From assembly GCA_021825235.1 (NCBI GenBank), contig JAKAIL010000003.1:1-41887 (forward strand): a DNA stretch of 41,887 nucleotides. The letters run 5' to 3'. The notes beneath the pieces were generated by a model. The model saw only the letters and a program-made list of their open reading frames with translations. It made no database searches and had not been told where the DNA came from. This DNA comes from Bacteroidota bacterium (GTDB lineage Bacteria; Bacteroidota; Ignavibacteria; Palsa-1295). Each line of letters starts with the position of its first letter. The stretch's first letter is position 1. Of this stretch, positions 18,204 through 34,500 are shown piece after piece. The position numbers were made by a program, and so were the translations under genes.

Positions 18204-19166
18204 TTAGTTGTGAGTCAGTGAGATAAGAGAGCGGGTAAAATCTTCCTTGGTAAACGAGTTGCCATCGGCCGTCACGTACCACCAATCGTATTGATAGATA
18301 GGTCCGGCGAAGCACCCGTAATACTTGTACTCACGATTGAAGTCATAGTCGTCAACCGCACTGGTCTTGATGCGGATATCGGCCGTATGATTCCACGTTC
18401 CAGCCGGGACCGTCCAGGATTCGTCATCGACAATTACATCGCACGAAGTGGTGGGATTAGGCTCGTTGATGACGTCATAATCCCAGGTTTCATTCGTGTG
18501 GAAGTCCTTTAAAAAGACGCAGCGCTCTTTGATAATGGGTCCGGTTCCACCTTCGCGTTCCCAGATAAACGCCGAATCCAGGTGTTCGCTGTACCAGATG
18601 GTATCCGTTTGCCAGGTATAGTTTCCGGTATCGTTAAAGTCGTCCACGGTTGTACGAACGTAGCCGCCAATGCCCGATAGGATCGTATCCGCAGAAACGG
18701 CGCGGGCGAGCCCGCTCATCGAGGACATTCCGCTGACGGTATCGCCAGGCAGCACAAAGGCCCCATGCGTATTGTCGGCGTGTGTTGCTGAGACGTAATT
18801 GATCGTCACGAATGGACGCCCCGCATACGCATTCGCGACGCGATAGCTTATCTGATAGCGGAACAGTGAATCGCCGTTGGAAGCCAACTGATCGTAGCCC
18901 ATGGTGCGGACCGTATCGTTCGATCCGTCCAGCGTAGCAGCTACCGAGCCATCACTGTTGTAGATTTTCTCTACATTGGTGAAGGCATAGGTCCAGCCGG
19001 CATCCTTATGATAGAAGTAGTCGCTCATGTTGGGGGAACCGAGGGTTCCACGTGAGCCGCCCGGGCCTACTGGACCGTTTGGATTGACGGCGCAGGATGC
19101 AAGGACGGTACTGGCGAGTGCAACGCATGCTAAGCGCGCATGCCAGGAGATAATGGGGATTTTCAT
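18204..19166 (-). CDS. Hypothetical lipoprotein
   Basis: Lipobox VLASC; TVPAGTW motif near the C-terminus. Confidence 0.75.
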   Translation of the reverse strand: MKIPIISWHARLACVALASTVLASCAVNPNGPVGPGGSRGTLGSPNMSDYFYHKDAGWTYAFTNVEKIYNSDGSVAATLDGSNDTVRTMGYDQLASNGDSLFRYQISYRVANAYAGRPFVTINYVSATHADNTHGAFVLPGDTVSGMSSMSGLARAVSADTILSGIGGYVRTTVDDFNDTGNYTWQTDTIWYSEHLDSAFIWEREGGTGPIIKERCVFLKDFHTNETWDYDVINEPNPTTSCDVIVDDESWTVPAGTWNHTADIRIKTSAVDDYDFNREYKYYGCFAGPIYQYDWWYVTADGNSFTKEDFTRSLISLTHN

Positions 19167-19211
19167 CGGTGTTGTGTTAGGTTATAATGGATGAATAATT
19201 CAGGATGGATG

Positions 19212-19574
19212 TCAAATATTGGAAGCAACCAAACCTGGATGAGCAATCATCCAAGGAGCAAGCAGCCACGGAACCCGGGATCCAGACGCATCGCTGACGA
19301 TGCCCGGAGTCCGGGTTCCGGGCATCGTCGCCGATGCGTCCGCTGCTCGATAACAGGCAACCAAACTACGGGGTAGGAGATGATCCATCATCCACGGATG
19401 ATCGGTCATCCACGCGCTGCTACCCGAAGAACTCCGCATGTCGCAAGTAAGATGTGAACCGTGACGCACCCGCTCTCGGCGGGGACGACCCACGGCAAGG
19501 TCCGCTTTACAAAAGGGGCAGACGTGTTCCCAATCGTTTCCGACGTAAGAACAGGATGGACACGTTTTCAGCAT
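19212..19574 (-). CDS. Possible small zinc-ribbon protein; 3' half runs through repeats
   Basis: CPSC-x10-CPFC at the N-terminus; the rest overlaps palindromic repeats. Confidence 0.35.
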   Translation of the reverse strand: MLKTCPSCSYVGNDWEHVCPFCKADLAVGRPRRERVRHGSHLTCDMRSSSGSSAWMTDHPWMMDHLLPRSLVACYRAADASATMPGTRTPGIVSDASGSRVPWLLAPWMIAHPGLVASNI

Positions 19575-19749
19575 TGTCGTTAAGAATCTATTAGGTTAAA
19601 TCTCTATGTCAAACTCGGCGAAGCAAGAACCATCCAAGGATGAGCGGTCATCCGGCATAATGCTTTGTAAACTTGACATACCGTAATATAAGCGGCGAAC
19701 TGTCAGTTTCCCTGACACTTGCATGGTATTCTATAGAAAAGTAAAAATC

Positions 19750-19765
19750 GCCGAATGCGTGCCAA
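19750..19765 (-). promoter_or_regulatory. Possible sigma54 promoter
   Basis: TTGGCACGCATTCGGC (GG-N10-GC); palindrome GTATC-N5-GATAC upstream at 19844-19858. Confidence 0.45.
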
Positions 19766-20268
19766 ATTCAGCATGTCAAAATTAAATACTTATCTAATAG
19801 ACAGCGTCAACATTGCAAATTGGAATGACGACGAGGCAAAAGTGTATCAGAACGATACGGATTCATGAAGCGACGACCCATCACCGGTGGTTCAACAGGG
19901 AGGTCCACGGATGAGTGATCTGCCAGAGGATGTTCCATGCACCTGCAATCCGCCTGGAGGACTTAGATAGGGAATCCCGAGGCCAAGAGCTCCGAGGATA
20001 AATCAGTAGCGGCAGAAGCGCGGTAAGCACCGGCGGAAGAAACCGGACCCCGGTACGGGAAGCCTACCCAGGCCGAAGGATGCCATTAACAGAAGGCTCT
20101 GCGATAGGTACTAAGCATGCCGAGCAGCGCAGACCAAACAAGACCGCACGGCAAGAGGCCATGAGCGATCCTTGGAAGAGCGATCACCCCTGCCTGCTTA
20201 AGAACCAGTTGGGAACCTGCGAGACCCAACATCGAAATACCCTGCCGCAACAGAAATCACACGGCCGA

Positions 20269-20531
20269 GTCGACGAATCTTACTTATGAATAGGAAGATT
20301 TATTTACCGGTCTCTGTAAAATTTCTTTACCATCTGGAAGGAATGCGGGTGTTGTCTTGAGGACCGTAAAGGAACTTTCCGCGATCTTACAAAATAATTT
20401 AACATGGTTGACTTTCTGAAAATATAACGGTAAGAATATTCGAAGGAAAAATTCTGATACGAAGAAACAAAAATCTCATGCTTCCTTCAAAAGCATAAAA
20501 AAATTTTTGACAGGTAGTAAGATTTACTTAC
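20269..20531. promoter_or_regulatory. Array of 15-bp GTAAG-N5-CTTAC-like boxes upstream of operon A
   Basis: GGAAGATTTATTTAC 20293, GTAAAATTTCTTTAC 20316, GTAAAGGAACTTTCC 20366, GTAAGAATATTCGAA 20430, GTAAGATTTACTTAC 20517. Confidence 0.65.
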
Positions 20532-20597
20532 GAACATCGCGAGGAGTGTTAAAGAATTATCCGTCGAATCAAGCGAAATCGTGCAATTGATTGACGT

Positions 20598-20614
20598 GGG
20601 TATGCTGGTTGCTA
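20598..20614 (+). promoter_or_regulatory. Sigma54-like -24/-12 promoter of operon A
   Basis: GGGTATGCTGGTTGCTA (GG-N10-GC); nearly identical to the element upstream of operon B. Confidence 0.65.
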
Positions 20615-20735
20615 TGCGTGTTCCAATAATTTTTACAGGATGGGGAAACATGCGCGATGGAAACGTTGCGATGTCCTCCCATCAGCCATAATGATTGAGT
20701 CAAGCATCCACGGAAGGGGCGATTTACTATTTAAC

Positions 20736-21713
20736 ATGGAACAGAACGAAGCAACAAGCAGAAGAAAATTTTTGAAGGTCGCAGCCGCTGCCGGGGCTGT
20801 CATCGCGACCGGTGCCGGACTTAAGAAAGCATTCTCAGCGGATAATCCATCCGGCAGCGATTCGCTCTCGGCAAGCTCTTCCCCAGCCGATACTTCGGCA
20901 TCCGGAGCCGATACTGCCGCGGCTGGTGAGAAGCTAAAAGTTCTTACACCCAGCGGTACGCTTCTCGAAATTGACAGCGCCCATGCCTATGCTACGCAGC
21001 ACAAGCCGGTATCCAATGAAGAAGCACGTATCGGCATACCAGGCCGAAAGTTCGTGATGGTCATTGATCTCTCGAAGTGCGATGGCTGCCGGAAGTGTAC
21101 GAAGGCGTGTCAGAAAATGCACTTTACCCCACCGGACCGCGAGTGGATCAAGGTCTTCGAAATGAAGGATTCGGAAGAAACCGGATCTTACTGGATGCCG
21201 AAGCCCTGCTTCCATTGCGATAATCCTCCCTGCACGAAAGTCTGCCCCGTTGGAGCAACGTTCAAGCGGGAAGATGGCATTGTTCTCATCGATAATACCC
21301 GTTGCATTGGCTGCCGCTTCTGTATGGCGGCCTGCCCATACTCCACGCGGTACTTTAATTGGGAGCACCCTGCAGAAATTCCCGCCATGGCGGATATTCC
21401 GTACACGCCGGAACAAGGGTATCCGCGCCGCGTGGGAACTGCCGAAAAGTGCGATTTCTGTCCGGACATGATTCGTGAAGGGCGCATGCCGGCCTGTATC
21501 GATTCCTGTGATATGGGCGCACTCTATTTCGGCGATGAGAACGAAGATGCGGTAACCAATTCCAATGGTGAGACGGTCCGCTTAAGCACGTTGCTCGATC
21601 AGAACGCGGGATACCGTTTTATGGAAGAATTGGGAACGAAGCCACGCGTCTATTATCTCCCGCCCAAGAATCGCCGTTATCCGGAACCCGTGCATGCAAC
21701 GGTCGTCGGATAA
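20736..21713 (+). CDS. Tat-exported 4x[4Fe-4S] protein (NrfC/PsrB/DsrO family)
   Basis: SRRKFLK Tat motif; CDGCRKCTKAC, CFHCDNPPCTKVCP, CIGCRFCMAACP, KCDFC...PACIDSC. Confidence 0.92.
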   Translation: MEQNEATSRRKFLKVAAAAGAVIATGAGLKKAFSADNPSGSDSLSASSSPADTSASGADTAAAGEKLKVLTPSGTLLEIDSAHAYATQHKPVSNEEARIGIPGRKFVMVIDLSKCDGCRKCTKACQKMHFTPPDREWIKVFEMKDSEETGSYWMPKPCFHCDNPPCTKVCPVGATFKREDGIVLIDNTRCIGCRFCMAACPYSTRYFNWEHPAEIPAMADIPYTPEQGYPRRVGTAEKCDFCPDMIREGRMPACIDSCDMGALYFGDENEDAVTNSNGETVRLSTLLDQNAGYRFMEELGTKPRVYYLPPKNRRYPEPVHATVVG

Positions 21714-21766
21714 TACCATCGTACAGTAGAGTAGAACGGTACCATCAGCCGCCACAAACCTTTATT

Positions 21767-23272
21767 ATGGAACACATTACAAAACAGAAGAACGGAGTAG
21801 CAATGGCTCTTGCCGGAGGAGAAACGGGCGAGAGCCGTGGAGATTTTCCACTTCCGACTGGACCGGGCATCGAAAGCATACGCCAGCATTATTTGCGCCC
21901 CATTGCGCCGGGTAATTTTGGGACGCGAAGCAAGTATTGGATTGCTGGGCTCCTTGTTGTTATGGCATGGGGGCTTTATGCCTACATCCATCAACTACAG
22001 ATGGGTCTCGAAGCCACGGCGATGCGGAACTATGTGTCATGGGGGCTCTATATTGCTACCTTCGTCTTTATTATCGGCATCAGCCATTCGGGCACTCTGG
22101 TCTCAGCCATCCTCCGGGTGACGAATCAGGAATGGCGGCGACCGATTACGCGATCGGCGGAGCTTCTGACGGCCGTCGCACTTATGTTCGGTGGGCTAAT
22201 GCCCATCATCGACATGGGGCGTCCGGACCGCGTGCTCAACCTGATCTTTTACGGACGTATTCAATCCCCCTTACTGTGGGATGTTTTGTGCGTCACGACT
22301 TACTTTACGGGAAGTGTGATGTTCTTGTATTTGCCGATGATCCCGGACATTGCACTGGCGAAGAAGCGGTTTGCTACAACCGGCTCGAAGTTTCGGCTTT
22401 GGGTCTACGATAAGCTTTCGATGGGCTGGCAGGGAACTCCGGAGCAATGGCGCCGGCTCGAACGCGCCATGCGAGTCATGACCGTCATGATCATTCCGAT
22501 CGCGGTTTCCGTACACACCGTGATCTCCTATATCTTTGCAATGACCTTACGGGCAGGATGGGATAGCACCGTGTTCGGGCCCTATTTCGTCGTCGGTGCA
22601 CTGTATTCTGGTTCCGCCGGCGTGATCCTGGTAATGGCGGCATTCCGCAAAATCTATCACCTGGAAGAATTTATTACTCCGCGCCATTTTGACTTAATGG
22701 GGAAAATCGTGCTATCGCTCACGATGATTTATGCCTATTTCAATCTCAATGAATATTGGATCCCAGCGTATAAAATGGCCTCCGGGGAAGCGCCACTGCT
22801 GCACTCGCTCTTCTCCGGTAACCTTTCTACTCTCTTCTGGACCTTACAGTTCGGGACGGTGCTGATTCCCATCATTATCCTGGCCACTCCACGTGGTCGC
22901 AGGCCTACCCTTTCGGTTATTGCTTGCATCATCATCGTGGTCGGTGCCTGGGTGAAGCGATACGCCATTGTCATTCCCGTGCTTGAGCATCCATTCCTTC
23001 CGATGCAGCATGCCCCGCAATCGTGGACGCATTACTTCCCCAATTGGGTGGAATTCTCCGTTGTTGGTGGTATGCTGGCCGGAATATTCTTAGTCCTTAC
23101 CCTCTTTTCGAAGTTCTTCCCCATTAGTTCCATCTGGGAAGTGGAAGAAGGCGTCCACCGATCGGAACATTCGGCGCACGATCACTCATCCGGTCAATCG
23201 CACCTTGCAGCAAATGGGAAGGACACTAATCACAAACACATTCCTGCAGTCGAGGAGGCCTTCGCGCAATGA
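21767..23272 (+). CDS. NrfD/PsrC-family quinone-interacting membrane subunit (ActC/QrcD-like)
   Basis: WGLYIATFVF.IGISHSGTLVSAIL, WRRPITR.AE, DMGRP.R, SPLLWD, SVHTV.S; many TM helices. Confidence 0.92.
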   Translation: MEHITKQKNGVAMALAGGETGESRGDFPLPTGPGIESIRQHYLRPIAPGNFGTRSKYWIAGLLVVMAWGLYAYIHQLQMGLEATAMRNYVSWGLYIATFVFIIGISHSGTLVSAILRVTNQEWRRPITRSAELLTAVALMFGGLMPIIDMGRPDRVLNLIFYGRIQSPLLWDVLCVTTYFTGSVMFLYLPMIPDIALAKKRFATTGSKFRLWVYDKLSMGWQGTPEQWRRLERAMRVMTVMIIPIAVSVHTVISYIFAMTLRAGWDSTVFGPYFVVGALYSGSAGVILVMAAFRKIYHLEEFITPRHFDLMGKIVLSLTMIYAYFNLNEYWIPAYKMASGEAPLLHSLFSGNLSTLFWTLQFGTVLIPIIILATPRGRRPTLSVIACIIIVVGAWVKRYAIVIPVLEHPFLPMQHAPQSWTHYFPNWVEFSVVGGMLAGIFLVLTLFSKFFPISSIWEVEEGVHRSEHSAHDHSSGQSHLAANGKDTNHKHIPAVEEAFAQ

Positions 23273-23925
23273 AAATTCTAAGATGCTCTCTACTATTCGT
23301 GCTCGCACTATTCCTGTTCAGCGTGCATGTACGCCGCTCTCTGGCCATGGACTCTATGGGCGGTATGGCGATGGATTCCGCAGGCGCCAGCACCGCCGCT
23401 GTGAGCGCGAGTGGCGCCGGCGATTCCTCCGCTTCCAATGCCAAACTTACGCTCGCTGTAACGGATGGCGATACGGTTTGGAACGTCCAGGCGAACTTTA
23501 TCGGCCCGGATTCAACCGGCAAGATCGGACCGCTCGCCAATCAGACCGTTAGCTTTTACGTCAAACGGCTCTTTGGCATCATGCCGATGCGAGACGATGA
23601 TAACACGGGAACGACGGATGATTCCGGAAACGCCGTGATTCAAATGCCGAAAAACATTCCCGGTGGTACCACCGGGATGCTCACGATCATTGCTCGTGTG
23701 GAACAAGACGATCAAACCGGTTTGGTCGCCGCCAGCGATTCTGGACATTGGGGGAAGGTCGTTCCTCTCGAGGCTAATCCATTCCCACGCGCGCTGTGGG
23801 AGCCCAATGCGCCCATTTCCATGATCATCGTTTTTGTCATTCTCTTCGGTGGCGTATGGTCCACCTACGGATTTGTAGTAACTCAACTTGTAACCATTAA
23901 AAAGGAACACCAGAATGAAGCATAA
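23269..23925 (+). CDS. Hypothetical periplasmic protein with C-terminal TM anchor
   Basis: Signal peptide, Met-rich start, beta-rich core (TTDDSGNA), C-terminal hydrophobic helix; ATGA-coupled to the nrfD-like gene. Confidence 0.8.
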   Translation: MKILRCSLLFVLALFLFSVHVRRSLAMDSMGGMAMDSAGASTAAVSASGAGDSSASNAKLTLAVTDGDTVWNVQANFIGPDSTGKIGPLANQTVSFYVKRLFGIMPMRDDDNTGTTDDSGNAVIQMPKNIPGGTTGMLTIIARVEQDDQTGLVAASDSGHWGKVVPLEANPFPRALWEPNAPISMIIVFVILFGGVWSTYGFVVTQLVTIKKEHQNEA

Positions 23926-24343
23926 ATCAGTATCCTCCCTTAGTGCTATCTTTCTTTCGATAGCCATTGCGGGGTTCATCGTTGCGTTTATTGTGACGAA
24001 TTCACCTGCAAGCAATGCCGGGAAATGGATGGCGCCAGCCTCCGCGAATAACATGAAAAATCCGGTCGCGAAGACGCCGGTCTCCATTCAGGACGGCAGG
24101 AAAATATTCAATAAAGAATGCAGTTCCTGCCACGGGCCAAAAGGTTTGGGCAATGGCCCAAAGGCGGGCGACCTGAATATTCAACCCAGCAACCTTGCCT
24201 CCCATTTGGTACAGAGCCAAAGCGATGGAGCGATCTTCTGGAAGATCACCACGGGCAATAAGCCGATGCCAACGTTTCGGACGGCCTATTCCGATCAAGA
24301 CCGTTGGAACCTTGTGAACTTTGTACGCACGCTGGGAAAGTAA
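23915..24343 (+). CDS. Monoheme class I cytochrome c
   Basis: CSSCH; SDGAIFWKITTG..PMP.F (distal Met); N-terminal hydrophobic segment. Confidence 0.9.
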   Translation: MKHKSVSSLSAIFLSIAIAGFIVAFIVTNSPASNAGKWMAPASANNMKNPVAKTPVSIQDGRKIFNKECSSCHGPKGLGNGPKAGDLNIQPSNLASHLVQSQSDGAIFWKITTGNKPMPTFRTAYSDQDRWNLVNFVRTLGK

Positions 24344-24428
24344 ACGGAAGCATTTATCTCATTTCCGCGCATCCACAGCCCCCTTTACTGTCAATGCGCA
24401 ACCCTGTTCATTTATCAGAACTACTACC

Positions 24429-25697
24429 ATGAAACGATTCATCACGATTCAATTACTCCTGCTGGCAAGCGCGGTTCTGCTGTTGGTCTCCGTAACCAAA
24501 AGCAACGCCATGCCGATATTCGCTCGCAAGTATGGCTTCAAATGTTCGTATTGCCATACCACGATTCCGCGTTTGAACGAGACGGGATTTCGGTTCCGGG
24601 CCGCGGGCTTCCGGCTGCCAAGCGATATCGGTGGGCCACAACCCGATGAAAATTACCAACTCGGTAACTATCTTGCAATAGCGCTTACGGGTGCACTGTC
24701 TAATAACACAACAAATCCTCCGGGCGCAGCTTCTACTTCTACCTTTTCCATGGGACTCGATCAGATTATGGTGGCCGCGGCTGGTGCGATGACCCCGGAG
24801 ATGTCCGGCGATGTACATTTGATGTACGATCCAATGAGCGGCACATTCGGGCTCGATAAAGCCTATGCGCAATACACCACCGGTGCCGAAAATGGATTCT
24901 TCACTGCCAAGCTGGGCGTGCTCGATCCGTTCCAGGGCTATCAGGCCTCGGATGAGGCGATGGGGCTTTCGGATCCACTCATAAAAGCCGACGCTGCGGT
25001 TGGACCCAATGGTTCCACGCTCTTCACGTCCGGTGGGCTTCCACAATTCGGATTGGAACTTGGATATACCTGGCCGACGACGGCTGTACGAGCTTCGGTC
25101 CTGGGTGGCGTGTTTAATTCCAGTGGCCAACCAATGCCCGTCGAGGGAACCGGTGGTAAACCGGTGGGACCCTCACAGAATAGCGTTGATTTTCAACTCT
25201 TCGTTACGCAGTTCCTGAATCAGGAAGGGGCCGGACTTTCGGGGTACTTCTACATGGGCAGTATCGACCTTCCGACCGGAGTTAGTTCCAGTTCGCCCGA
25301 TAGCAATGTCTTTCAGGATAAGTTCATTCGCTATGCGATCTACGGAACGCTTCCCATCTCCTCGTTTCAGGTGCTGGCCGGTTGGCAACAGGGAACCGAT
25401 AATAGCTGGGACTCCACGACCTTTGCGAAGGGTAGCGACTTTTCGAGTTCCGGATTCTTTGGTGAACTCGATTACCAGCTCGCTCCGCTTCTGGGCGTGG
25501 GCGTCCGCTATGATCAATTCGATCCCTGGACGAAGCAATCCGATAATCTAATAAACGGTGTGGCTGGCTTTGTCAATTATGCCGTTGGGGACGGGCTCCA
25601 ATTCGTTGGAGAATATCAGTCACTTACTACTCAGCAAGGCCCCGGACAAAAAGAGACCGACGGTAGCTTTGGAATCAACGTGATCTGGATTCACTAA
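24429..25697 (+). CDS. cyc2: Cyc2-like fused monoheme cytochrome-porin (copy A)
   Basis: After the signal peptide: AMPIFARKYGFKCSYCHTTIPRLNETGFRFRAAGF, matching the Cyc2 AxPxFAR[Q/K][T/Y]-x3-CxxCH-x3-PxL motif; beta-strand-rich remainder. Confidence 0.88.
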   Translation: MKRFITIQLLLLASAVLLLVSVTKSNAMPIFARKYGFKCSYCHTTIPRLNETGFRFRAAGFRLPSDIGGPQPDENYQLGNYLAIALTGALSNNTTNPPGAASTSTFSMGLDQIMVAAAGAMTPEMSGDVHLMYDPMSGTFGLDKAYAQYTTGAENGFFTAKLGVLDPFQGYQASDEAMGLSDPLIKADAAVGPNGSTLFTSGGLPQFGLELGYTWPTTAVRASVLGGVFNSSGQPMPVEGTGGKPVGPSQNSVDFQLFVTQFLNQEGAGLSGYFYMGSIDLPTGVSSSSPDSNVFQDKFIRYAIYGTLPISSFQVLAGWQQGTDNSWDSTTFAKGSDFSSSGFFGELDYQLAPLLGVGVRYDQFDPWTKQSDNLINGVAGFVNYAVGDGLQFVGEYQSLTTQQGPGQKETDGSFGINVIWIH

Positions 25698-25752
25698 GAA
25701 GTCGTAGAACGCTATGAAGCTGGCTGCAAAAGGCGGCCTGCTAAGGTTATGT

Positions 25753-25786
25753 ATGGGAGATGCCTGAGAGGCATCTCCCATTTTTT
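25753..25786 (+). terminator. Intrinsic terminator of operon A
   Basis: ATGGGAGATGCCT-GAG-AGGCATCTCCCAT followed by TTTTT. Confidence 0.9.
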
Positions 25787-25809
25787 GTCGTATTTCTGCA
25801 TTTCCTCCT

Positions 25810-26417
25810 ATGAAACAAGAACGTTCTCTTTCGACCCAGCCGCTCGTACCGTTGATCTGCACAATCCGGAACAGCCGCGTCATGTTCGAGGCGGACTTAG
25901 CCAGATTGTATGGCGTTAGCACAAAGCGTTTTAACCAAGCATTTAATCGAAATCGTCTCCGATTTCCGGAGGATTTTGCATTTCAGCTTTCAGCTGTAAG
26001 AATGTAAGATACTTCCATTAGAAACACAAGAGCTCCTTTTGAGGTCGCAATTTGCGACCTCAAACAACGAGAAAGAAAATAAGGGGATGCCGACGCTATC
26101 TGCCCTGGGCCCTCACCGAGCACGGCGCGCTTATGGCCGCAAATATTCTTCGAAGTAAACGTACTCGCGAAATGAGTGTCTTTATCATTCGAGCGTTCGC
26201 AAAACTACGCGAGGAAACTGCTGCAAATGCGGTAATCCTCAAACGCTTTGCGGAGATTGATAGGACATTGCTTGTGCATGAAAAGGAGCTGCGAAAGCTT
26301 TATCAACAGCTCCGTCCACTGCTGGCTCCTGGCGAAGTGTCATCCAAACGAAGAATCGGATTTCGAACTCCCGGTGAAGAGGGCTCTCTCACATCAAGCA
26401 GGGATGGGCGAAAGTAG
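25810..26417 (+). pseudogene. ORF6N (KilA-N-like) DNA-binding protein, frameshifted
   Basis: IRNSRVMFEADLARLYGVSTKRFNQA..RN..RFPEDFAFQLS, then LRSQFATS, then RRYLPWALTEHGALMAANILRS and KRRIGF, not in one continuous frame. Confidence 0.85.
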
Positions 26418-26439
26418 CATGTCGCAATATGTAACCAGT

Positions 26440-26973
26440 TCAAGCATTCGCCACTCGTTTCAGGAAGCAGACTCGTGAAATGGCATCATATATCGCATGG
26501 CTGCCAATGTGCTCATAGCCGAGCGCTTCATTCATGTGGATAGCTTCAGCATTTTCCGGATGCTGGAATGTAAAGATCCATTCGATACCGCGCGATTTAC
26601 ATTCCGCTTCAAGTGTGCTCTTTAGTTCACGGGCGATCCCTTGCCGGCGGAATTCCGGCTCGACCCACAGATCGAAAATCTCTGCAAAGCGCATGGAAGA
26701 CCCAATGATTGGAATAAGAAGTTTCCAGGTATTTTCCGTGACCGTTGGTTCCGAAGGGTTTGAAGTGCGAACCATGATAGCGCCGACGGAACGATTAGCA
26801 GTTTGAGCAACGAAGCTAAAGTTCTGACTTTCCTCTAGGAAGCTTCGGATCAGGGCCTCCCGTTTGGCCTTAGCTCCCTGCCAATCGAAGCCCTCCCGAT
26901 CGCAGGAACGCTGGTCGATGGAAAGCAGAAGTGGGAGATCGACCATCGTGGCGCGGTGTAGGGAATAATCCAT
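26440..26973 (-). CDS. GNAT-family N-acetyltransferase
   Basis: LWVEPEFRRQGIA acetyl-CoA motif; N..AI.MNEALGY. Confidence 0.85.
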   Translation of the reverse strand: MDYSLHRATMVDLPLLLSIDQRSCDREGFDWQGAKAKREALIRSFLEESQNFSFVAQTANRSVGAIMVRTSNPSEPTVTENTWKLLIPIIGSSMRFAEIFDLWVEPEFRRQGIARELKSTLEAECKSRGIEWIFTFQHPENAEAIHMNEALGYEHIGSHAIYDAISRVCFLKRVANA

Positions 26974-27041
26974 AGCCAGTGGAACGCCATCCTGGGCAAG
27001 AACGTCATTGAGGGACTCTAAGAAGCTCGAACGAAAGCAAT

Positions 27042-27070
27042 AAAAAACCCTCTCCGTTCGAGAGGGTTTT
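27042..27070 (-). terminator. Intrinsic terminator of operon B
   Basis: AAAACCCTCTC-loop-GAGAGGGTTTT with a T-tract on the minus strand. Confidence 0.85.
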
Positions 27071-27092
27071 CAGTGTGATCTTCTCTAACCGA

Positions 27093-28535
27093 TTACTTTT
27101 TCAGGCTCTGTAGGAACGCTACGAGCTCATGGAATTCGCTATCGGAAACATCGACGGGGTCCATACCGGCATCGCTGGCCTTTTTGGTCGGATGAAGTAG
27201 GCGATCGACCAGCGTATCGGGTCCGAGTTTGTCCGCGGCGCCAAGAAGCGCTGGGGCTTTATCGGTTCCCTCACCATTCTCGCCGTGGCATTGGTCGCAC
27301 GAGTTATCCAGAAAAACGCCTTTACCGGCTTTTGCCGCCGGACTCAACGCGGCGGCAGCATTGGCAGTGGAACCACCAACCACTTCCGGCACAAACGGGG
27401 AAGTCATAAACGCGTTCGCGAGAGAATCCTGCTTGGTAATCTGTTTTGCAACTGAGGGATCGTTCGTATCCTGATAGTTGCTTTGCCATCCAAGAAAGAG
27501 AAGCGCGCAAAATACGATCGCAAAGGAAAACGATGCGACGGGCCGCTTCCACGGTCGTCGTTCCAAGCGGCGATCCAGGAACGGTAACACCACAAGTATG
27601 AGTGCAATGATACCGGGGATCACCACAATGCCAATTACGGAATATGCACCGCTCCAATATTTCAGCCATTGGAACATCGGAAGGTAATACCACTCGGGCC
27701 GAGGAAGGAAGGACGTATCGGCGGGATTTGCCTTCGGCCCAAGACCTACCGGATAAAGGTAGGCGAGCAATCCAAGCGTGCCAATCAGGACCGTCGCAAA
27801 TGCGATATCCATCAGGACCTGCTTGGGGTAAAATTGCTCCGCCTTTTGCTGTGGCATAATCGGATGTTCGGAGACCGGTCCAGCGCTTCCGGCTTTGCGG
27901 AAGAGATAGACGTGAAGCCCCACGAAGAGGAAAATGCACGATGGAATCAGAAATACGTGAGCGACGAAGAAACGGGACAATGTAAGTGTTCCCATCTCCG
28001 TGCCACCCCGCAGGAGCTCCTTAATCCAGTTCCCAACGAGCGGTACTTCGCCGGCAATGTTTGTCCCAACCGCCGTAGCGAAATAGGCTTTCTGGTCCCA
28101 GGGAAGTAAATAACCGGTGAATGCCATGAGGATCACCAGGCCAAACAGTCCCAAACCTGAAAGCCATAGAATTTCCCGACGCCCTTTGTAGGAGCCAAAG
28201 AAATACGTTTGCCCCATGTGGACGAGGAGCGTTACAACCATGGCACTCGAACCATACGAGTGCAGGCTCCGAAGGAACGATCCAGCAGTAACGACCTTCG
28301 TAATGTATTCGATCGTCGTATGGGCGTGATCGGCGCTCGCGACATAATACATCGCAAGAAAGACTCCGGTCACAATCTGCGAAAGCAGAATGTAAAGGAG
28401 TCCCGAGCCAAAGACGTACGACCACCGCGCGCCACCGGGGATTGGTTCATTCAGCGCTTCATCGGCCAGATGAAAGATTCCCGTTCGTTCATCGAGCCAG
28501 CGCATGAAGCGTAAGCTGCGTAAATGCTTTCTCAT
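27093..28535 (-). CDS. Cytochrome b (b + subunit IV) fused to a C-terminal monoheme cytochrome c
   Basis: RSLH...LLVH and AH-x14-H heme b ligands, FTGYLLPWDQ, PEWY Qo motif, C-terminal CDQCH. Confidence 0.93.
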   Translation of the reverse strand: MRKHLRSLRFMRWLDERTGIFHLADEALNEPIPGGARWSYVFGSGLLYILLSQIVTGVFLAMYYVASADHAHTTIEYITKVVTAGSFLRSLHSYGSSAMVVTLLVHMGQTYFFGSYKGRREILWLSGLGLFGLVILMAFTGYLLPWDQKAYFATAVGTNIAGEVPLVGNWIKELLRGGTEMGTLTLSRFFVAHVFLIPSCIFLFVGLHVYLFRKAGSAGPVSEHPIMPQQKAEQFYPKQVLMDIAFATVLIGTLGLLAYLYPVGLGPKANPADTSFLPRPEWYYLPMFQWLKYWSGAYSVIGIVVIPGIIALILVVLPFLDRRLERRPWKRPVASFSFAIVFCALLFLGWQSNYQDTNDPSVAKQITKQDSLANAFMTSPFVPEVVGGSTANAAAALSPAAKAGKGVFLDNSCDQCHGENGEGTDKAPALLGAADKLGPDTLVDRLLHPTKKASDAGMDPVDVSDSEFHELVAFLQSLKK

Positions 28536-29206
28536 GCCATCACCTCCTTCGTTTTGACGAGGTTACGGAATGATTGATAGCGCACCTTCAGATGACCCTC
28601 TTCGATTTTGGATTCGAGTGAATCCATATCTCGCGGCGGGGGCCCTGAAATCAGTTTGCCGGTTGCCGCAAACTTACCACCATGGCACGGGCATTTGAAT
28701 TGGTGATCGTCATCGACATACTTAACCGAGCAGCCCAAGTGTGGACAGACCGCCGTTAGCACCGCCGGTTGGCCGTCTGCGCCTTTGATTACGTACACCA
28801 CCTTTTCGGAATTGACTTTTCTCCAACCATCGAGTTGGGTAATCGAGATCGTCTTCTTTTGTGGTGTGCTCAGGTCACCCAAATCATCCACGGAACCCAG
28901 GTCGGTCCATTCCGTTTCCTGGGAAACCCGGAGCAGCGGATCGATCGCGAACCGAAACAGCGGTACGGAAAGCGCGCCTGCTACTCCCACGGTTCCGATT
29001 CCGAGGAACCATCCGAGGAACCGGCGCCGCGCCACAGACTCCGCCGCACCGAGCGTGCCACCGGCGGCCGTATGTTCGTGCCCGGAAGTCATCTCTAAAT
29101 GCGAAGCATCATGCGCCGAGCGCCCATTCGTTGGAATGGGCGCCCGTTGCTGGATTTCGTTGGATGACCGATTATCCGTTACTTCTTCTTTTGACTTTCG
29201 AGCCAT
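28532..29206 (-). CDS. Rieske [2Fe-2S] subunit (true start may be ATG 29092)
   Basis: ARRRFLG Tat motif plus TM helix; CPHLGC and CPCHGGKF boxes; GPPPR. Confidence 0.93.
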   Translation of the reverse strand: MARKSKEEVTDNRSSNEIQQRAPIPTNGRSAHDASHLEMTSGHEHTAAGGTLGAAESVARRRFLGWFLGIGTVGVAGALSVPLFRFAIDPLLRVSQETEWTDLGSVDDLGDLSTPQKKTISITQLDGWRKVNSEKVVYVIKGADGQPAVLTAVCPHLGCSVKYVDDDHQFKCPCHGGKFAATGKLISGPPPRDMDSLESKIEEGHLKVRYQSFRNLVKTKEVMA

Positions 29207-29520
29207 GCCGTCAGTGTGTTAAGTTCTTCATCGGAACCAGTGAACTTTTTCATGTGCTTTTTGCCATGCTGTTCCACTTCCTTGTGCAGCCACTGCTTCA
29301 TCCAGTCCTGCGTATGGCGGTCGCCAACGTCGGAAAGATCGGGTGGTGGATACTTCGCACCTTCCGGCGGCTCGCTGGTATGATGAATACCCTGCGAGGA
29401 GATCGAATGGCACTTGTTGCACCCGTTATCGAGGAAAAGGCTCTTTCCCGAATTGCTTTTGAGTGTGGCGCTCGTGAGTAAACCGGTCGCGAGCAAACCT
29501 AAGAATAGTGTTTTCTTCAT
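29179..29520 (-). CDS. Small periplasmic monoheme cytochrome c
   Basis: Signal peptide MKKTLFLGLLATGLL; CNKCH; PPDLSDVG; KKHMKKF. Confidence 0.9.
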   Translation of the reverse strand: MKKTLFLGLLATGLLTSATLKSNSGKSLFLDNGCNKCHSISSQGIHHTSEPPEGAKYPPPDLSDVGDRHTQDWMKQWLHKEVEQHGKKHMKKFTGSDEELNTLTAWLESQKKK

Positions 29521-29543
29521 CGAATTATTATCCTTCCTTTGAT

Positions 29544-30899
29544 TTATTGGAACCAACTGACACGCAGCGCAAAGGCATTATTCTGTGCTGTTCCCAGCAA
29601 GCTCTCTCCATTCGAAGTCGGAGTCTTTGTGCTCGTGGCAGCGTAGGAGGCGGTGAGCGAGAACCCATCGCCGAAATTATAGTCCACGTAGCCCGTAATC
29701 ACGTTAATGTTATCGATGCTGGCGTTCGAATTGTCTGGCGTTACTGCATCGTAGCGCGCGCCAACGCCGATGAGGTCCGTAACCGGATAATCGGCTTCGC
29801 CGAACCAGCCAGAGCTGCTGATATCCGGGCCATACGAGAAGGTTTTCAGAGCCCAGCTATTATCGGAACCGTGTTCATAGCCGCCTTCCAGAAGGACCTT
29901 CGCGACGGGAATCGGGTAACTCGCATAGATCGCATAGCGGCTGAATTTATTTTGCCAGAATTCCGAATCGACATTGGTCGAAGCAGAGCCCGTGTTAATG
30001 TCGGCGTTTCCAAGGTAGTACGCCGCGGAAATACCGCCACCATCCTCGGTCAGGATATAGTTGGCCCAAAACATATAGTCAAAGGAATTAGCGGAGGGGG
30101 CTTGCCCTGCACCGACGCCGGTCGGTTTACCGGCCACGGCTGCCGAAGGCTTTCCGCCGGCATAGGTATAACCACTCAGGACTTCCGCATGTACCGTCGC
30201 TTCACCGAAGACATATCCGAGATCGATTCCCATATTGGAACCAGTCAGTCCGGTGTACGTGGGCTTTACCCCGCCATTCTGATAATTATACAAGCTGATT
30301 GCATACCCCGAATTCATCTTCGGGCTGCCACTCCACCCACGATCGGAGCCGCCGTAGCCCATGAAGGTATTAAGCTTTCCAATGCGTGCCGAGAACCAGG
30401 AATCTTCGGTACCCGTGTAATAACCAACAGAAGCCGTCGAAACTTCGAGGCTGCCATTGGTGCTGAACCCGAGTTCCGATTCTGATGAGATATTCGGCGT
30501 TAGAGCGCCGAATATGGCATAGATAGAACCACCGGTGAAGGCCATGTTCATGTTGCTAACCGAGGGCGATCCGGATGCCGCCGCGGTTGCCGACGACTGA
30601 TTCACGGCAAAATTCAGCCTGCCCGCGAAGTAGTCCCCGATGTTATACGATGCTTGTTTCTGCCCGATTTCGTCCGGCATCCGGTAACCGGCTGCACGGA
30701 ATTTCCAGCCGAATTCGTTCAGTTTCGGAATTACGTCATGGCAGCTGCCGCAGCCAAGGCCGTACTTCCGCGCGAAATTAGGCATCGCGCTGGCCGTGTG
30801 TAGTATGGGAATTACGGGCGATGCCGAAATCGCGAAGAGTGCAAGCAGGAGCGCCATCACCCGTAGTGTCTGTTGGAGTTGTAAGCTATGAGAACGCAT
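29544..30899 (-). CDS. cyc2: Cyc2-like fused monoheme cytochrome-porin (copy B)
   Basis: AMPNFARKYGLGCGSCHDVIPKLNEFGWKFRAAGYRMP Cyc2 motif after the signal peptide; beta-barrel-like body ending ALRVSWFQ. Confidence 0.9.
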   Translation of the reverse strand: MRSHSLQLQQTLRVMALLLALFAISASPVIPILHTASAMPNFARKYGLGCGSCHDVIPKLNEFGWKFRAAGYRMPDEIGQKQASYNIGDYFAGRLNFAVNQSSATAAASGSPSVSNMNMAFTGGSIYAIFGALTPNISSESELGFSTNGSLEVSTASVGYYTGTEDSWFSARIGKLNTFMGYGGSDRGWSGSPKMNSGYAISLYNYQNGGVKPTYTGLTGSNMGIDLGYVFGEATVHAEVLSGYTYAGGKPSAAVAGKPTGVGAGQAPSANSFDYMFWANYILTEDGGGISAAYYLGNADINTGSASTNVDSEFWQNKFSRYAIYASYPIPVAKVLLEGGYEHGSDNSWALKTFSYGPDISSSGWFGEADYPVTDLIGVGARYDAVTPDNSNASIDNINVITGYVDYNFGDGFSLTASYAATSTKTPTSNGESLLGTAQNNAFALRVSWFQ

Positions 30900-31070
30900 A
30901 GTGTTTCTTTGGTTATGGTTGAAGTTCGAAGGCCAGGATCCGCTATCCGTGGTCCGGCGTGTGGCCAACAGTGTTCCGAAATTCGGAACCCCGCCCCGCA
31001 AACCGGAAGCAGCGTCGGCGATGCTCGGACTCTACGGACCTCGGGCTCCCGGCCTTTGAGGCGCTTGGCC

Positions 31071-31087
31071 TATCAAGCAGCATACCT
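31071..31087 (-). promoter_or_regulatory. Sigma54-like promoter of operon B
   Basis: Minus strand AGGTATGCTGCTTGATA versus GGGTATGCTGGTTGCTA of operon A. Confidence 0.6.
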
Positions 31088-31142
31088 ACCGGTACTATTT
31101 GCGGGAATTAAAGGATTTTGAGCACCCGGAAGATTTCAATCA

Positions 31143-31383
31143 GTTAAGTTTACTTACAGCGTTAATAAAATCTTTCACACACGTTTTATGAACCCGTAAA
31201 AACATTGCTATGCACGAGAACTATTTTCCAGAAACCGTAGGAATTAATAGTCAAATATTCTTACGCGCGAACGATCTAAAGGTGAATATTTCTTTTACAC
31301 ATCGTAGGGGTGCATTGCAATCGCTCCCTGTTTCATGCAAATTTCTTAACTGGGAATGAGAAAGACGCGCTAACAAATCTTAC
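31143..31383. promoter_or_regulatory. Array of GTAAG-N5-CTTAC-like boxes upstream of operon B
   Basis: GTTAAGTTTACTTAC 31143, GTCAAATATTCTTAC 31250, TGCAAATTTCTTAAC 31336, GCTAACAAATCTTAC 31369. Confidence 0.65.
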
Positions 31384-31515
31384 GGACTACGGACAGTGGA
31401 AAGTGGACAACGGATAGTGGATAATGGAAAGTACCGTGGACAACGGATAGTGGATAGTACCGCCTGAGTAGTCTCCATTATCCACTATCCACTATCCACT
31501 TTCCACTTTCCACTA
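31381..31515. repeat. Inverted arrays of degenerate 7-bp tandem repeats
   Basis: (AGTGGAT/AACGGAT/AGTGGAA)n followed by (TCCACTA/TCCACTT)n. Confidence 0.9.
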
Positions 31516-34500
31516 CTGAAACAGTTTCCGGAACTTCTCCCGCCATTCCGAGAAGATTTCGTAAATCGTCGGGATGACCACCAGCGTAAGGATCGTGGAC
31601 GTAATGACGCCGCCGATCACCGCACGGCCCAGCGGAGCCCGGAAATCCGCGCCTTCTCCCGCGCCGATAGCTACCGGGATCATGCCCGCGATCAGCGCAA
31701 GCGTCGTCATCATAATTGGACGCAACCGCACCCGGCCCGCCTCGATGAGCGCCTCCCGCAATGGCATACCTCCTTCGTGTTGCCATTTCGCAAAGTCGAT
31801 GAGAAGGATCGCGTTCTTCGCTACGATACCCATCAGAAGCATGATACCGATCAGCGCCATTACGTTCAGCGTATCGCCCGTGATGAGCAGCGCAAGCACC
31901 ACGCCGATCAGCGAGAGCGGAAGCGAAATCAGGATCGCAACCGGATCTAAGAACGAGCCGAATTGCACCACTAAGATCAGGTACATCAGCAATATCGCAA
32001 GACCAAGCGCCTCGAAGATCGCTACATAGAACTCCCCTTGTTGCTGCACCTGGCCGCCATTCGTTACCCGAATGCCCGGCGGTAGTTTTAGCTTCGCTAC
32101 CGCGCTATTGATATCCTGGGACACCTGCCCGAGCGAACGGCCCTGCGTATTGCACTCCACGTTGATGACCCGGTCCTGGTTCAAATGGTCTATCTCCGCT
32201 GGGCCAAGACCTTGCGTTATGTTCGCAATCTGCCCGAGTGGAACAATTCCTGCTCCGCCCGAACCGCCTGCCTGAGTGGGAGCGACCACCAAGGGAACTT
32301 GTGCCAGATTCGCGGCGGACTCCCGCGCTTCCGGAGCCAGCCGCACCGTCACATCACGCGTCTTGCCGGTCGGATCGACCCAGTCGCCCGTCTTCAGGCC
32401 GGCGAAGGCCGGAAGCAGCGATTGGGCGACCTGGCCCACCGTCAGCCCCATCGACCCAATCAGACCGCGACGCAAAGTGACTTCGATTTCCGGCTTTTGC
32501 CCTTTGGTCGAAAGCCCAATATCCGCCGTGCCGGGGACCTTCCGAATGGCGTCCTCGATCATCAGCGAAGCGTGCTCCATACTCGCTTCGTCCGAGCCCT
32601 GGACCTGTAGCTGCACTTCCTTTTGCGCGCCGCCGAACCCGCTGGAAAACACGTACGCGTCCACGCCGCCAATGGTCGCAAGCTGTTTGCGGAAGACTTC
32701 CGCGAGTTCCCATTGCGCCAGCGAGCGGTCCGCTTTCGGAATCAGCTTTACATAGATAGAGGCTTGCGTCACATCGCCGGAACCGGATGACGTGCCCAGC
32801 ATCGTCGTTTCGCTGCCAATCGTCGTGTACGTGTAGGCGACTTCCCGGTGGGCCCGCAGCAGGTTGGTAAGCTCCTGCGTCTTCGCCAGGGTATAGCCAA
32901 GGCTGGAACCCGGCGGTGCCTCCACCGAGATCGTGAGTTCCGAGCGGTCGCTGTTCGGAACGAAGCCGGAGCCGCCGTATTTGGCTTGCACGAAGAGCGC
33001 ACCGAAAAATGCAACCACGGCGATCACCACCATCCACCACCGATGGTCCAGCGCCCACGCGATAATGCCGCGATACCCATCCGCGGTCCGATTGAACCAG
33101 GTATTGAACGCATCCAGCCACGGATACATAATCCCGAGCACGCCTAAGCCAAGCAGCAGGTAACTTAGGAGGGGGGTGGCCAACCCGTACACAAGCCCGC
33201 CAAGCCCAAACAAGAAGGATGCAATGCCAAGTATGGTCGGGAGCGTTTTCCGGCGCGTGTGGACTACGGTATGGGGGTCCGGCCAGTAGGCCGAAAGCAT
33301 CGGGTCCAGCGAGAAGCTCACGAAGAGCGATACGAGCACCGCGCACGCTACGGTAAGCGCGAACGGCTTGAACCATTGGCCGGAAAGACCGCCCATGAAC
33401 GCGACTGGAACGAAAACGGCAACGATAGAAAACGTCGTTGCCGTTACCGCCAAACCGATTTCATTCGTTCCATTATGGGCGGCCGTCAGGTGGTCCTCGC
33501 CGAGTTCCACATGGCGCACGATGTTCTCGCGGACGACGATCGCATCGTCTATCAGAATCCCAATCGCGAGCGAAAGGCCCATGAGCGACATCGTGTTCAG
33601 CGTAAAGCCGGCCGCCAGCACCGCCATAAACGCTGCGAGAACAGAAACAGGCAAGGCGAGGCCGGTGATAACCGTCGAACGCCACGAATTCAGGAACAAG
33701 AAGACGACCAGCACCGTAAGCAACGCGCCTTCGAAGAGGGTCTCTTTTACGTTCTCCACCGAGCGCGTGACCTGAACGCCCTGGTCTTTCACAATATCGA
33801 GTGTGGTTCCCGGAGGTAGCGTCTTTTTAATGCCGGCAATAGCCGCGCGAACAGCATCTGCCACCGTAGCCGTGCTGGCGCCTTTCGCTTTGGTAATATC
33901 CAAGCCCACACACGCTTCGCCATTGAATAGCGCCATCGTTCGTGCCTCTTGCGCGGTATCCGCAACAGAGGCAACATCCTGCAAGCGAATGACTTGCCCG
34001 TTGCGCGTGGCAATCGGCACATAGTTGAAGTCGTTCGGATTTTCTATCCTTCCCTGAAGCCGAATGGACTGCTCTGTGAGTGGCGTTTGCAAGGAACCCA
34101 CCGGTGCCGCAAGGTTCTGCGCCTCGAGCGCCTGCACGACCTGCGCTACGCTCACTCCGTTCGCTTCCAAATCCCTGGGGCGGACATTTACCGCGATCTC
34201 GCGATTGACGGCCCCTTCAATGGCGACCTGCGCGACTCCATCGATGGCCGAAAGAGCTTTCTTGATTTCCGGATCGGCAAGCGATGTTAAATCTGCCGGC
34301 GTCATACCGGGCGAACGCAGCACGAGCGAAACAATCGGCAATTGGTCCGGATCGAATTTCTCGAGGATCGGCGGCTTCATCTCCGTCGGCAGGTCATTCT
34401 GGATGGTCGAGATGGCATCCCGTACATCCGCCATCGCTTCGTCGGGATTCTTCGAAAAGACGAATTGGATTGTGATTAGCCCAAAGCCATCGAGCGATTG

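Follow-up and report, generated by a model that had tools for sequence, protein, structure and literature searches.

NtrB/NtrC control of the glnAp2 promoter is the paradigm of enhancer-dependent transcription, in which dyad enhancers precede a GG-N10-GC promoter by about 100 bp. In LuxO-Qrr and GlrK/GlrR-GlmY, a sigma-54-dependent small RNA is encoded next to the two-component system. The NtrC-like regulator NmpR of the NmpRSTU system in Myxococcus xanthus binds GCGCA-N5-TGCGC and has a sigma-54 regulon linked to oxygen utilisation, according to the available part of the source (PMC11841059). The rus operon of Acidithiobacillus ferrooxidans, whose first gene is cyc2, has mapped sigma-70 promoters and is controlled by RegB/RegA, and the available text of the same source names only the tet and cyd operons as sigma-54-dependent (PMC5506826). 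Here we describe two operons for Cyc2-like cytochrome-porins, termed A and B, on one contig of a Bacteroidota bacterium (Ignavibacteria, Palsa-1295; assembly GCA_021825235.1, contig JAKAIL010000003.1), together with the -24/-12 elements and GTAAG-N5-CTTAC boxes that precede them. The window is this whole contig (41,887 nucleotides; C37 in our numbering), and all coordinates refer to it unless another contig or locus is named; the genome (G000) amounts to 3.84 Mb in 346 contigs and is 92% complete.

Each of the two operons is likely transcribed from an enhancer-dependent sigma-54 promoter with an activator bound to the boxes, and we assign this reading a probability of about 0.72. One redox-sensing two-component system probably switches both operons on together, since conserved sigma-54 promoters are accompanied by activator sites at a fixed helical phase. 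Such a system would resemble RegB/RegA in being a redox-responding two-component system that acts on a cyc2-headed operon with downstream electron carriers. It would differ in that RegA is not an AAA+ activator and in that the cyc2 operons themselves carry a -24/-12 element, as far as the available part of the Acidithiobacillus source goes. In the literature covered, the sigma-70 promoters of Acidithiobacillus were the only mapped ones for cyc2. A full-text literature search combining cyc2 with sigma-54, RpoN or enhancer-binding terms returned no report of sigma-54 control of cyc2, and the words "cytochrome" and "respirat-" are absent from the available main text of a 2025 survey of sigma-54 regulons (PMC12316311).

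Conserved -24/-12 elements upstream of the cyc2-type operons

A preliminary description of this DNA had placed a shared sigma-54-like motif upstream of both operons. The motif is found at both places, as GGGTATGCTGGTTGCTA at 20598-20614 (+) and AGGTATGCTGCTTGATA at 31087-31071 (-), with 15 of the 17 positions identical. The predicted -24/-12 element of operon A, GGTATGCTGGTTGC (20599..20612, + strand), has the form GG-N10-GC and a predicted transcription start at about 20624; that of operon B, GGTATGCTGCTTGA (31073..31086, - strand), has the form GG-N10-GA and a predicted start at about 31061. The degenerate core common to the two, GGTATGCTGNTTGNTA, matches exactly at these two sites only in the 3.84-Mb genome, and the next best 11 genome sites carry two mismatches.

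Eight orthologous upstream regions were collected from other genomes, comprising the counterparts of operon B in G001, G012, G002, G010, G026 and the metagenome locus L057, and those of operon A in G005 and G003. Only one independent orthologue was gained from metagenomes: L057 and L058 have the same upstream sequence, and L059 is identical to the locus L017 of a named metagenome-assembled genome. The operon A orthologue of G004 was left out of the counts, as its contig ends 65 bp upstream. With sites A and B of the window and the second cyc2 gene of G018, a member of another genus, the set contains 11 cyc2-type sites.

The pattern GGTAY-N5-TTG, fixed a priori, occurs no more than 300 nt from the start codon in seven of the eight orthologous regions, compared with 10 of 1511 other upstream regions in the window's genome; the eighth orthologous region carries GGAAC-N5-TTG. 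The cyc2B orthologues keep GGTAY-N5-TTG(A/C) in G001, G012, G002, G010, G026 and L057. The corresponding elements of operon A are GGTATGACAATTGA in G005 and GGAACAGTGGTTGT in G003, and the second cyc2 of G018 has GGAATGGATGTTGC. The orthologous upstream DNA around the element is unalignable (about 25% identity). Throughout the 11 sites the GG, the A at the fourth position and the TTG are invariant and the spacing from GG to the -12 element is constant; the G that follows GGTAY, equivalent to the G of TGGCACG, is present in nine.

GTAAG-N5-CTTAC boxes and their helical phasing

The array of palindromic boxes reported upstream of both operons was borne out by counting, and the boxes occur there far more often than elsewhere between genes. 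Over the 305 nt that precede each GG, three boxes matching at least 8 of the 10 consensus positions were found for operon A and three for operon B; 592 other upstream regions of the genome have a mean of 0.12 per 300 nt, and none of the 592 reaches three. At a threshold of at least 7/10 the counts are five (A) and seven (B) versus a mean of 0.92, some of the 7/10 matches being overlapping or seemingly spurious. In a ranking of 1687 intergenic regions by GTAA[AG] half-sites, region A is first and region B seventh.

The proximal box of operon A, GTAAGATTTACTTAC (20517..20531), matches the consensus at 10/10 positions, and its centre precedes the first G of the GG by 75 bp. The proximal box of operon B, GTAAGTAAACTTAAC (31143..31157), matches at 8/10 and is centred 64 bp upstream. 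The boxes end 67 bp (A) and 56 bp (B) ahead of the motif start used in the preliminary description, which had given the same distances. The word GTAAGAATATT, said to be shared by the two regions, is present at 20430-20440 in A and at 31264-31254 in B; in A it is contained in a weak box, GTAAGAATATTCGAA (20430..20444), which lies 162 bp from the GG and, at 6/10, is below the 7/10 threshold. Operon B has a distal box, GTAAGAATATTTGAC (31250..31264; 8/10), 171 bp upstream of the GG, and a weak far distal one, GTAAGATTTGTTAGC (31369..31383; 7/10). The distal boxes of operon A, identified by consensus match, lie at 20293-20307 (8/10), 20316-20330 (8/10) and 20366-20380 (7/10).

The distance between the centre of the proximal box and the first G follows a regular pattern. 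It is 75 bp in operon A of the window, 73 bp in G005 and 62 bp in G003; for the operon B sites it is 64 bp in the window and about 73.5, 72, 73, 74, 75 and 62 bp in the orthologues; and for the second cyc2 of G018 it is 62.5 bp. The 11 sites thus fall into two spacing classes, 72-75 bp (seven sites) and 62-64.5 bp (four sites).

We then searched all 35 genomes of the family for a strict composite of box and promoter, GTAAR-N5-YTTAC-N54-76-GGHAY-N5-TTG. It gave 22 matches in 15 genomes, versus 7 for the reversed control. The spacings are 62 (seven matches), 63 (two), 72 (four), 73 (one), 75 (one), 81 (three), 82 (two), 83 (one) and 84 bp (one), and none of the 22 falls on the 13 other values that the pattern allowed. 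A Rayleigh test with a period of 10-10.5 bp gave R of about 0.83-0.86 and p of about 1e-7, the matches not being phylogenetically independent. Taken over the cyc2-type sites, the family-wide sites and the small-RNA sites described below, the upstream boxes lie on one helical face, at 62-64, 72-75 or 81-84 bp from the GG. Three peaks one helical turn apart are expected of an activator that faces the polymerase and not of an operator that is unrelated to the -24 element.

Many composites in other genera have canonical TGGCAY-N5-TTGC cores, such as TGGCATGGTCTTTGCT and TGGCACGACCTTTGCA. Among the genes behind the composites are those for multihaem, NapC/NirT and dihaem cytochromes, a CRP-family regulator, YceI-like proteins, a pyruvate:ferredoxin oxidoreductase, a radical-SAM protein and, in G020, a PAS histidine kinase. 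In 224 kb of collected loci the composite is found upstream of cyc2 and actB operons only, apart from one weak match. Intergenic box-promoter pairs at 60-78 bp in the window's genome are limited to A, B and one weak site. No composite was found at the first cyc2 of G018 or at the cyc2 genes of G011 and G053.

The preliminary description had proposed that one activator co-induces both operons. The conserved -24/-12 element and the phased palindromic box support this proposal, but it has to be qualified on two points: site B reads GA and not GC, and some at least of the distal A boxes (20293-20380) may serve a possible divergent -24/-12-like site instead. This site, GGTATTTCGATGTT (20228..20241, - strand), has the box 20316-20330 located 82 bp upstream. 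It faces a non-coding stretch and the genes at 19574-18204.

By analogy with the described enhancer-dependent systems, RNA polymerase with RpoN would occupy the -24/-12 elements as a closed complex, with the GG at 20599-20600 (A) and 31086-31085 (B), and would stay stalled until an AAA+ enhancer-binding protein remodels it through ATP hydrolysis. The activator would bind the 5-N5-5 dyad GTAAG-N5-CTTAC as dimers and then as oligomers. The proximal dyad, whose centre precedes the GG by about 64-75 bp, would correspond to roughly -88 to -99 from the predicted starts at 20624 and 31061, and DNA looping would bring the activator to the polymerase. Three metatranscriptomes of the same study contained next to none of the sequence words looked for, and none of their contigs matched 20000-31600.

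A candidate two-component activator

The genome encodes one RpoN with activator-interacting, core-binding and DNA-binding domains; the lack of rpoN, which would have spoken against sigma-54 promoters, does not apply here. Eight full Sigma54_activat proteins are encoded in the genome (E below 1e-68) and none of them on contig C37, in agreement with the earlier statement that the activator is not encoded in the window. Five of the eight have orthologues in all three composite-bearing relatives compared (G001, G002 and G010).

Our candidate is the response regulator on contig C256, which we consider somewhat more probable than all the other activators together. It combines the domains Response_reg (99.9 bits), Sigma54_activat (234 bits) and HTH_8 (45 bits) and has a GSFTGA loop and the ESELFGH motif. 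The regulator and its partner kinase score below the NCBIfam equivalog cut-offs (AtoC 456.6 vs 714, NtrC 446.6 vs 558.6, ZraR 385.3 vs 760 and AtoS 197.8 vs 646), and the predicted pair is assignable at the level of the NtrC family only. Of the 35 family genomes, 24 have an orthologue of the regulator, among them all 15 composite-positive ones, and the composite was found in none of the 11 genomes that lack an orthologue (Fisher p = 4e-4).

Gene neighbourhoods point to the same protein. An operon of hemN, kinase and regulator, or of kinase and regulator, adjoins a cyc2B-Rieske-cytochrome b or a cyc2C cluster in G010, G004, G018, G026 and G009; in the fragmented assembly of the window's genome, the cyc2B, cyc2C and regulator blocks are split over C37, C230 and C256. 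Composites are located 0.6-9 kb from a C256-type regulator gene in G016, G020, G022, G026 and G027, and in G020 one lies directly upstream of the PAS kinase gene. The order of the C256 operon is RIC (iron-sulfur cluster repair), hemN, kinase and regulator, with RIC in first place in G000, G001, G002, G003, G004 and G009. In the same six genomes, boxes matching 8-10 of 10 positions precede the RIC start, and the intergenic region of this locus in the window's genome ranks fourth among the 1687 for GTAA[AG] half-sites.

The partner kinase is a soluble protein with one PAS domain, which is closest to 3ewk_A (E = 3e-24), NifL (2gj3) and Aer (8dik). The structure 3ewk is one we take to be the FAD (flavin adenine dinucleotide)-binding sensor domain of MmoS, and the PAS domains of NifL and Aer bind FAD. 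From this similarity we infer that the partner kinase may be a flavin-based redox sensor.

A putative small-RNA gene was found at about 8919-9155 (+) of locus L056, which is part of contig C256, just upstream of the RIC-hemN-kinase-regulator operon. It is single-copy in the window's genome and also present in G001, G002, G003 and G009; G004 was left out of this comparison, as its contig ends there. The segment of about 100 nt has the core ...TTGCATTCCGATGA...GACGACAAGAAAAAGGCGAC..., followed by a GC hairpin and a T-run that constitute an intrinsic terminator. Boxes are located 83-84 bp upstream of TGGCAC or TGGAAC in all five genomes, and also at 63 bp in G009 and G002. The -12 region is degenerate (TTCG, TTCT, TGTT or TGCA). 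A comparison of this region with Rfam gave sub-threshold matches only.

A 9/10 box, GTAAGTAATTCTGAC, was also observed just downstream of the C256 regulator gene (L056, 14374-14388), about 50 nt before a 110-aa open reading frame that matches no family.

The third Cyc2-like cluster, cyc2C (C230 about 16340-16700, - strand; L082 4100-4480; L083 2120-2460), encodes a CarboxypepD_reg-like protein and c-type cytochromes. GTAAG-N5-CTTAC boxes are present upstream of it, with a 10/10 match in G004. The adjacent TGGCAY element has the form GG-N9-GC or lacks a clear -12 part, and one of the boxes directly adjoins the GG.

If the C256 regulator is the activator, its phosphorylated form would bind the dyads and open the complexes, with redox or oxygen status as the presumed signal. 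Joint induction could then extend to both Cyc2 conduits, the third Cyc2-like cluster, other electron-transfer genes and the small RNA beside the regulator operon. We speculate, at slightly less than even odds, that the flavin-PAS kinase and the NtrC-type regulator act throughout the family as a sigma-54-dependent master switch over electron-transfer modules, extracellular as well as periplasmic; the targets would include the three Cyc2-like clusters, the operon of the pair itself, the small RNA, and multihaem and NapC/NirT cytochromes.

Evidence against the proposed regulation and alternative explanations

Several observations weigh against sigma-54 promoters activated from the boxes. The consensus match is modest, with 9 of the 12 specified positions of TGGCACG-N4-TTGCW matched at site A and 8 at site B. 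Sites of 9/12 are common genome-wide (1486, of which 119 are intergenic, with GG and GC forced), and the whole-genome consensus scan, with the same bases forced, gave almost no intergenic enrichment. Local alignment of upstream regions A and B yields at best a stretch of 22 nt, which is not significant (score 24 vs 19.6 +/- 2.2 for shuffles, with a maximum of 28). Since the likeness is not significant and ends at 22 nt, the regions are not a duplication and have no extended paralogy, and it is the orthologues, not the A/B pair, that set the elements above chance. Perfect GTAA-N7-TTAC palindromes are not in excess genome-wide, with 52 in total and 13 intergenic versus, for example, 46 and 14 at N11. 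In G005 and G026 the element begins only 29 and 33 nt ahead of the predicted start codon, which implies a near-leaderless mRNA or a mis-set start; the genome-wide scripts relied on crude longest-open-reading-frame calls. The related genomes share ancestry, so that all p-values overstate the significance. Finally, site B and most orthologues read TTGA, departing from the C usual for sigma-54 at -12, and in G010, which lacks RIC-hemN, no box of at least 9/10 was found before the kinase-regulator operon.

The -12 base is A in seven, C in three and T in one of the 11 cyc2-type sites. Among upstream-oriented intergenic GG[CT]A[CT]-N5 sites of the window's genome, TTGA follows 14 times and TTGC 13 times, versus 2-9 and 3-6 times at seven other spacings. 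A ClpC-like chaperone gene (contig C81; L013 about 1864-1877, - strand) has TGGCACAATCGTTGAA, a TGGCAC-N5-TTGA element, 27 nt before its start. The element is kept in G001 and G010 and appears as TGGCATAATCGTTGAA (TGGCAT-N5-TTGA) in G012; the ClpC-like gene of G002 has TTGCAC where the others have TGGCAC. Clp-type proteases are among the sigma-54 targets reported for Bacteroidota in the available text of the 2025 survey (PMC12316311). The enrichment of TTGA at the correct spacing, the ClpC-like promoter and the Clp targets support, although they do not prove, that sigma-54 uses TTGA at -12 in this lineage.

The alternative that survives best accepts the promoters and boxes and assigns them to another activator, either the receiver-AAA+ protein encoded on C205, as the leading choice, or one missing from the assembly, with C256 being just a co-regulated neighbour. 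We consider this unlikely. Other activators are available, given the five that are shared with the composite-bearing relatives, and the C205 type is present in 33 of the 35 genomes and in 14 of the 15 composite-positive ones, the sole miss being G026, which is 67% complete; the lack of strong boxes before the kinase-regulator operon of G010 also fits. But the C205 type is equally found in 10 of the 11 composite-free genomes, which makes its distribution uninformative either way. Linkage and the boxes at its own locus favour C256 over C205: among the contigs with activators, only C256 has a box-rich region in the half-site ranking, and none was seen near C205. Of the 15 composite-positive genomes, 6 lack the C133 type, 7 the C202 type and 5 the C94 type.

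Less probable still is that the boxes serve as operators for a regulator outside the enhancer-binding class, such as a global oxygen or nitric oxide (NO) repressor or a protein of CRP/FNR type that acts at housekeeping promoters, and that GGTAY-N5-TTGM is not read by sigma-54. The boxes precede RIC and hemN, which are classic targets of oxygen and NO regulators in other bacteria, and in G000 and G001 a box abuts the RIC start and no sigma-54 core fits downstream. The predominance of A at -12 would also agree with this explanation. A scan for sigma-70 promoters gave two sites per region versus 1.5 +/- 1.1 and 1.0 +/- 1.0 expected, with none at the motifs, a result that excludes Bacteroidota-type housekeeping promoters from its coverage. 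On the other side, the strict 10-bp phasing of box and GG-N10-TTG at 22 sites in 15 genomes is unexpected for an operator, many family sites have canonical TGGCAY-N5-TTGC cores, and an alignment anchored on the GG showed no other conserved promoter block. The 5-N5-5 dyad, moreover, is the geometry of NtrC-like regulators such as NmpR in the available part of its description (PMC11841059).

Chance likeness with no regulatory role could be suspected from the non-significant A/B alignment and the AT-rich intergenic DNA, in which TAAGAA-type hexamers are enriched about 2.6-fold as other AT-rich words are (k-mer enrichment tests were uninformative, AT-richness being dominant), but this is effectively refuted by the pattern in the orthologous regions, the box counts unmatched in control regions and the phased spacing.

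Gene content and other features of the window

By profile and sequence comparison, operon A (20736..25697, + strand) encodes a protein with a twin-arginine translocation (TAT) signal that resembles the Fe-S proteins DsrO/QrcC, an NrfD-type membrane subunit, an uncharacterised protein, a cytochrome c and the Cyc2-like cytochrome-porin A (420 aa; about 24429-25697, + strand), which has a signal peptide and one CXXCH motif. Operon B (27093..30899, - strand), assigned in the same way, encodes the Cyc2-like cytochrome-porin B (30899-29544, -), a Rieske protein (29206-28532, -) and a cytochrome b/c fusion (28535-27093, -). Both Cyc2-like proteins have a single CXXCH haem motif after a hydrophobic N-terminus (...KCSYCHT... 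in A and ...GCGSCHD... in B). Neither matched any family in Pfam or NCBIfam; the Atlas clusters closest to them are annotated as "Porin family protein" and "putative Cytochrome c domain-containing protein", with TM (template-modelling) values of 0.72-0.83 to predicted models. The two proteins fit the architecture of Cyc2 cytochrome-porins, and the label "cyc2" is used here in this architectural, putative sense only.

The stretch of about 700 bp at 19575-20290 has ordinary G+C content and no open reading frame of at least 70 aa. Folding of 19800-20290 (-) revealed no excess folding energy (z = 0.2), and an Rfam search of 19000-32000 gave no family at the gathering score.

A long imperfect inverted repeat (31391..31511) has 44-nt arms that are 86% complementary and contain GTGGATA/GTGGAAA-type heptads. 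It directly follows an AcrB-like gene, between this gene and the cyc2B control region, and is likely a terminator or insulator. In G004 a similar tandem array of GTGGATGATCGGTCATC precedes the Rieske gene. A perfect palindrome, GTTCCGAATTTCGGAAC (30973-30989, -), is contained in the predicted 5' leader of cyc2B and was not seen by eye in the G001 orthologue.

Comparison with known regulatory systems

The cyc2 gene serves as a marker for inferring microbial Fe(II) oxidation in metagenomes, and its inducers are largely unknown outside Acidithiobacillus. With a promoter, an operator and a candidate sensor at hand, the question becomes testable in a heterologous host although the organism is uncultured, and the box with a phased -24/-12 element provides a sequence signature for co-regulated electron-transfer genes in related genomes. 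The master switch, if true, would give Cyc2-type iron oxidation its first defined transcriptional regulon beyond Acidithiobacillus, and would be a case of sigma-54 routinely reading TTGA at -12.

The proposed system shares with NtrB/NtrC the combination of a PAS-HisKA-ATPase kinase with a receiver-AAA+-Fis-HTH regulator and the location of dyads about 100 bp upstream. It differs in that the C256 pair scores below the equivalog cut-offs, its context is RIC-hemN and cytochromes instead of glnA, and the -12 base is mostly A. LuxO-Qrr and GlrK/GlrR-GlmY are matched by an NtrC-family gene located beside a short terminator-ended RNA gene that has regulator sites and a -24 element ahead of it; in contrast to those systems, the putative RNA here belongs to no Rfam family and its -12 region is degenerate.

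NmpR, as far as the available part of its description goes, is similar in its 5-N5-5 dyads, in the presence of at least two sites upstream of sigma-54 promoters, in the regulation of its own operon and in the cytochrome-related genes of its regulon. In contrast to NmpR, the dyad here is GTAAG-N5-CTTAC, the phylum is different and the system is known from sequence alone; the sensor is predicted to be a single soluble flavin-type PAS kinase and not part of a multi-kinase phosphorelay; and the likely targets are Cyc2-like cytochrome-porins with quinone-side complexes. The enhancer-dependent mechanism is textbook and cyc2 is new as its target, which makes the proposed regulation an extension of the known systems and not a new principle.

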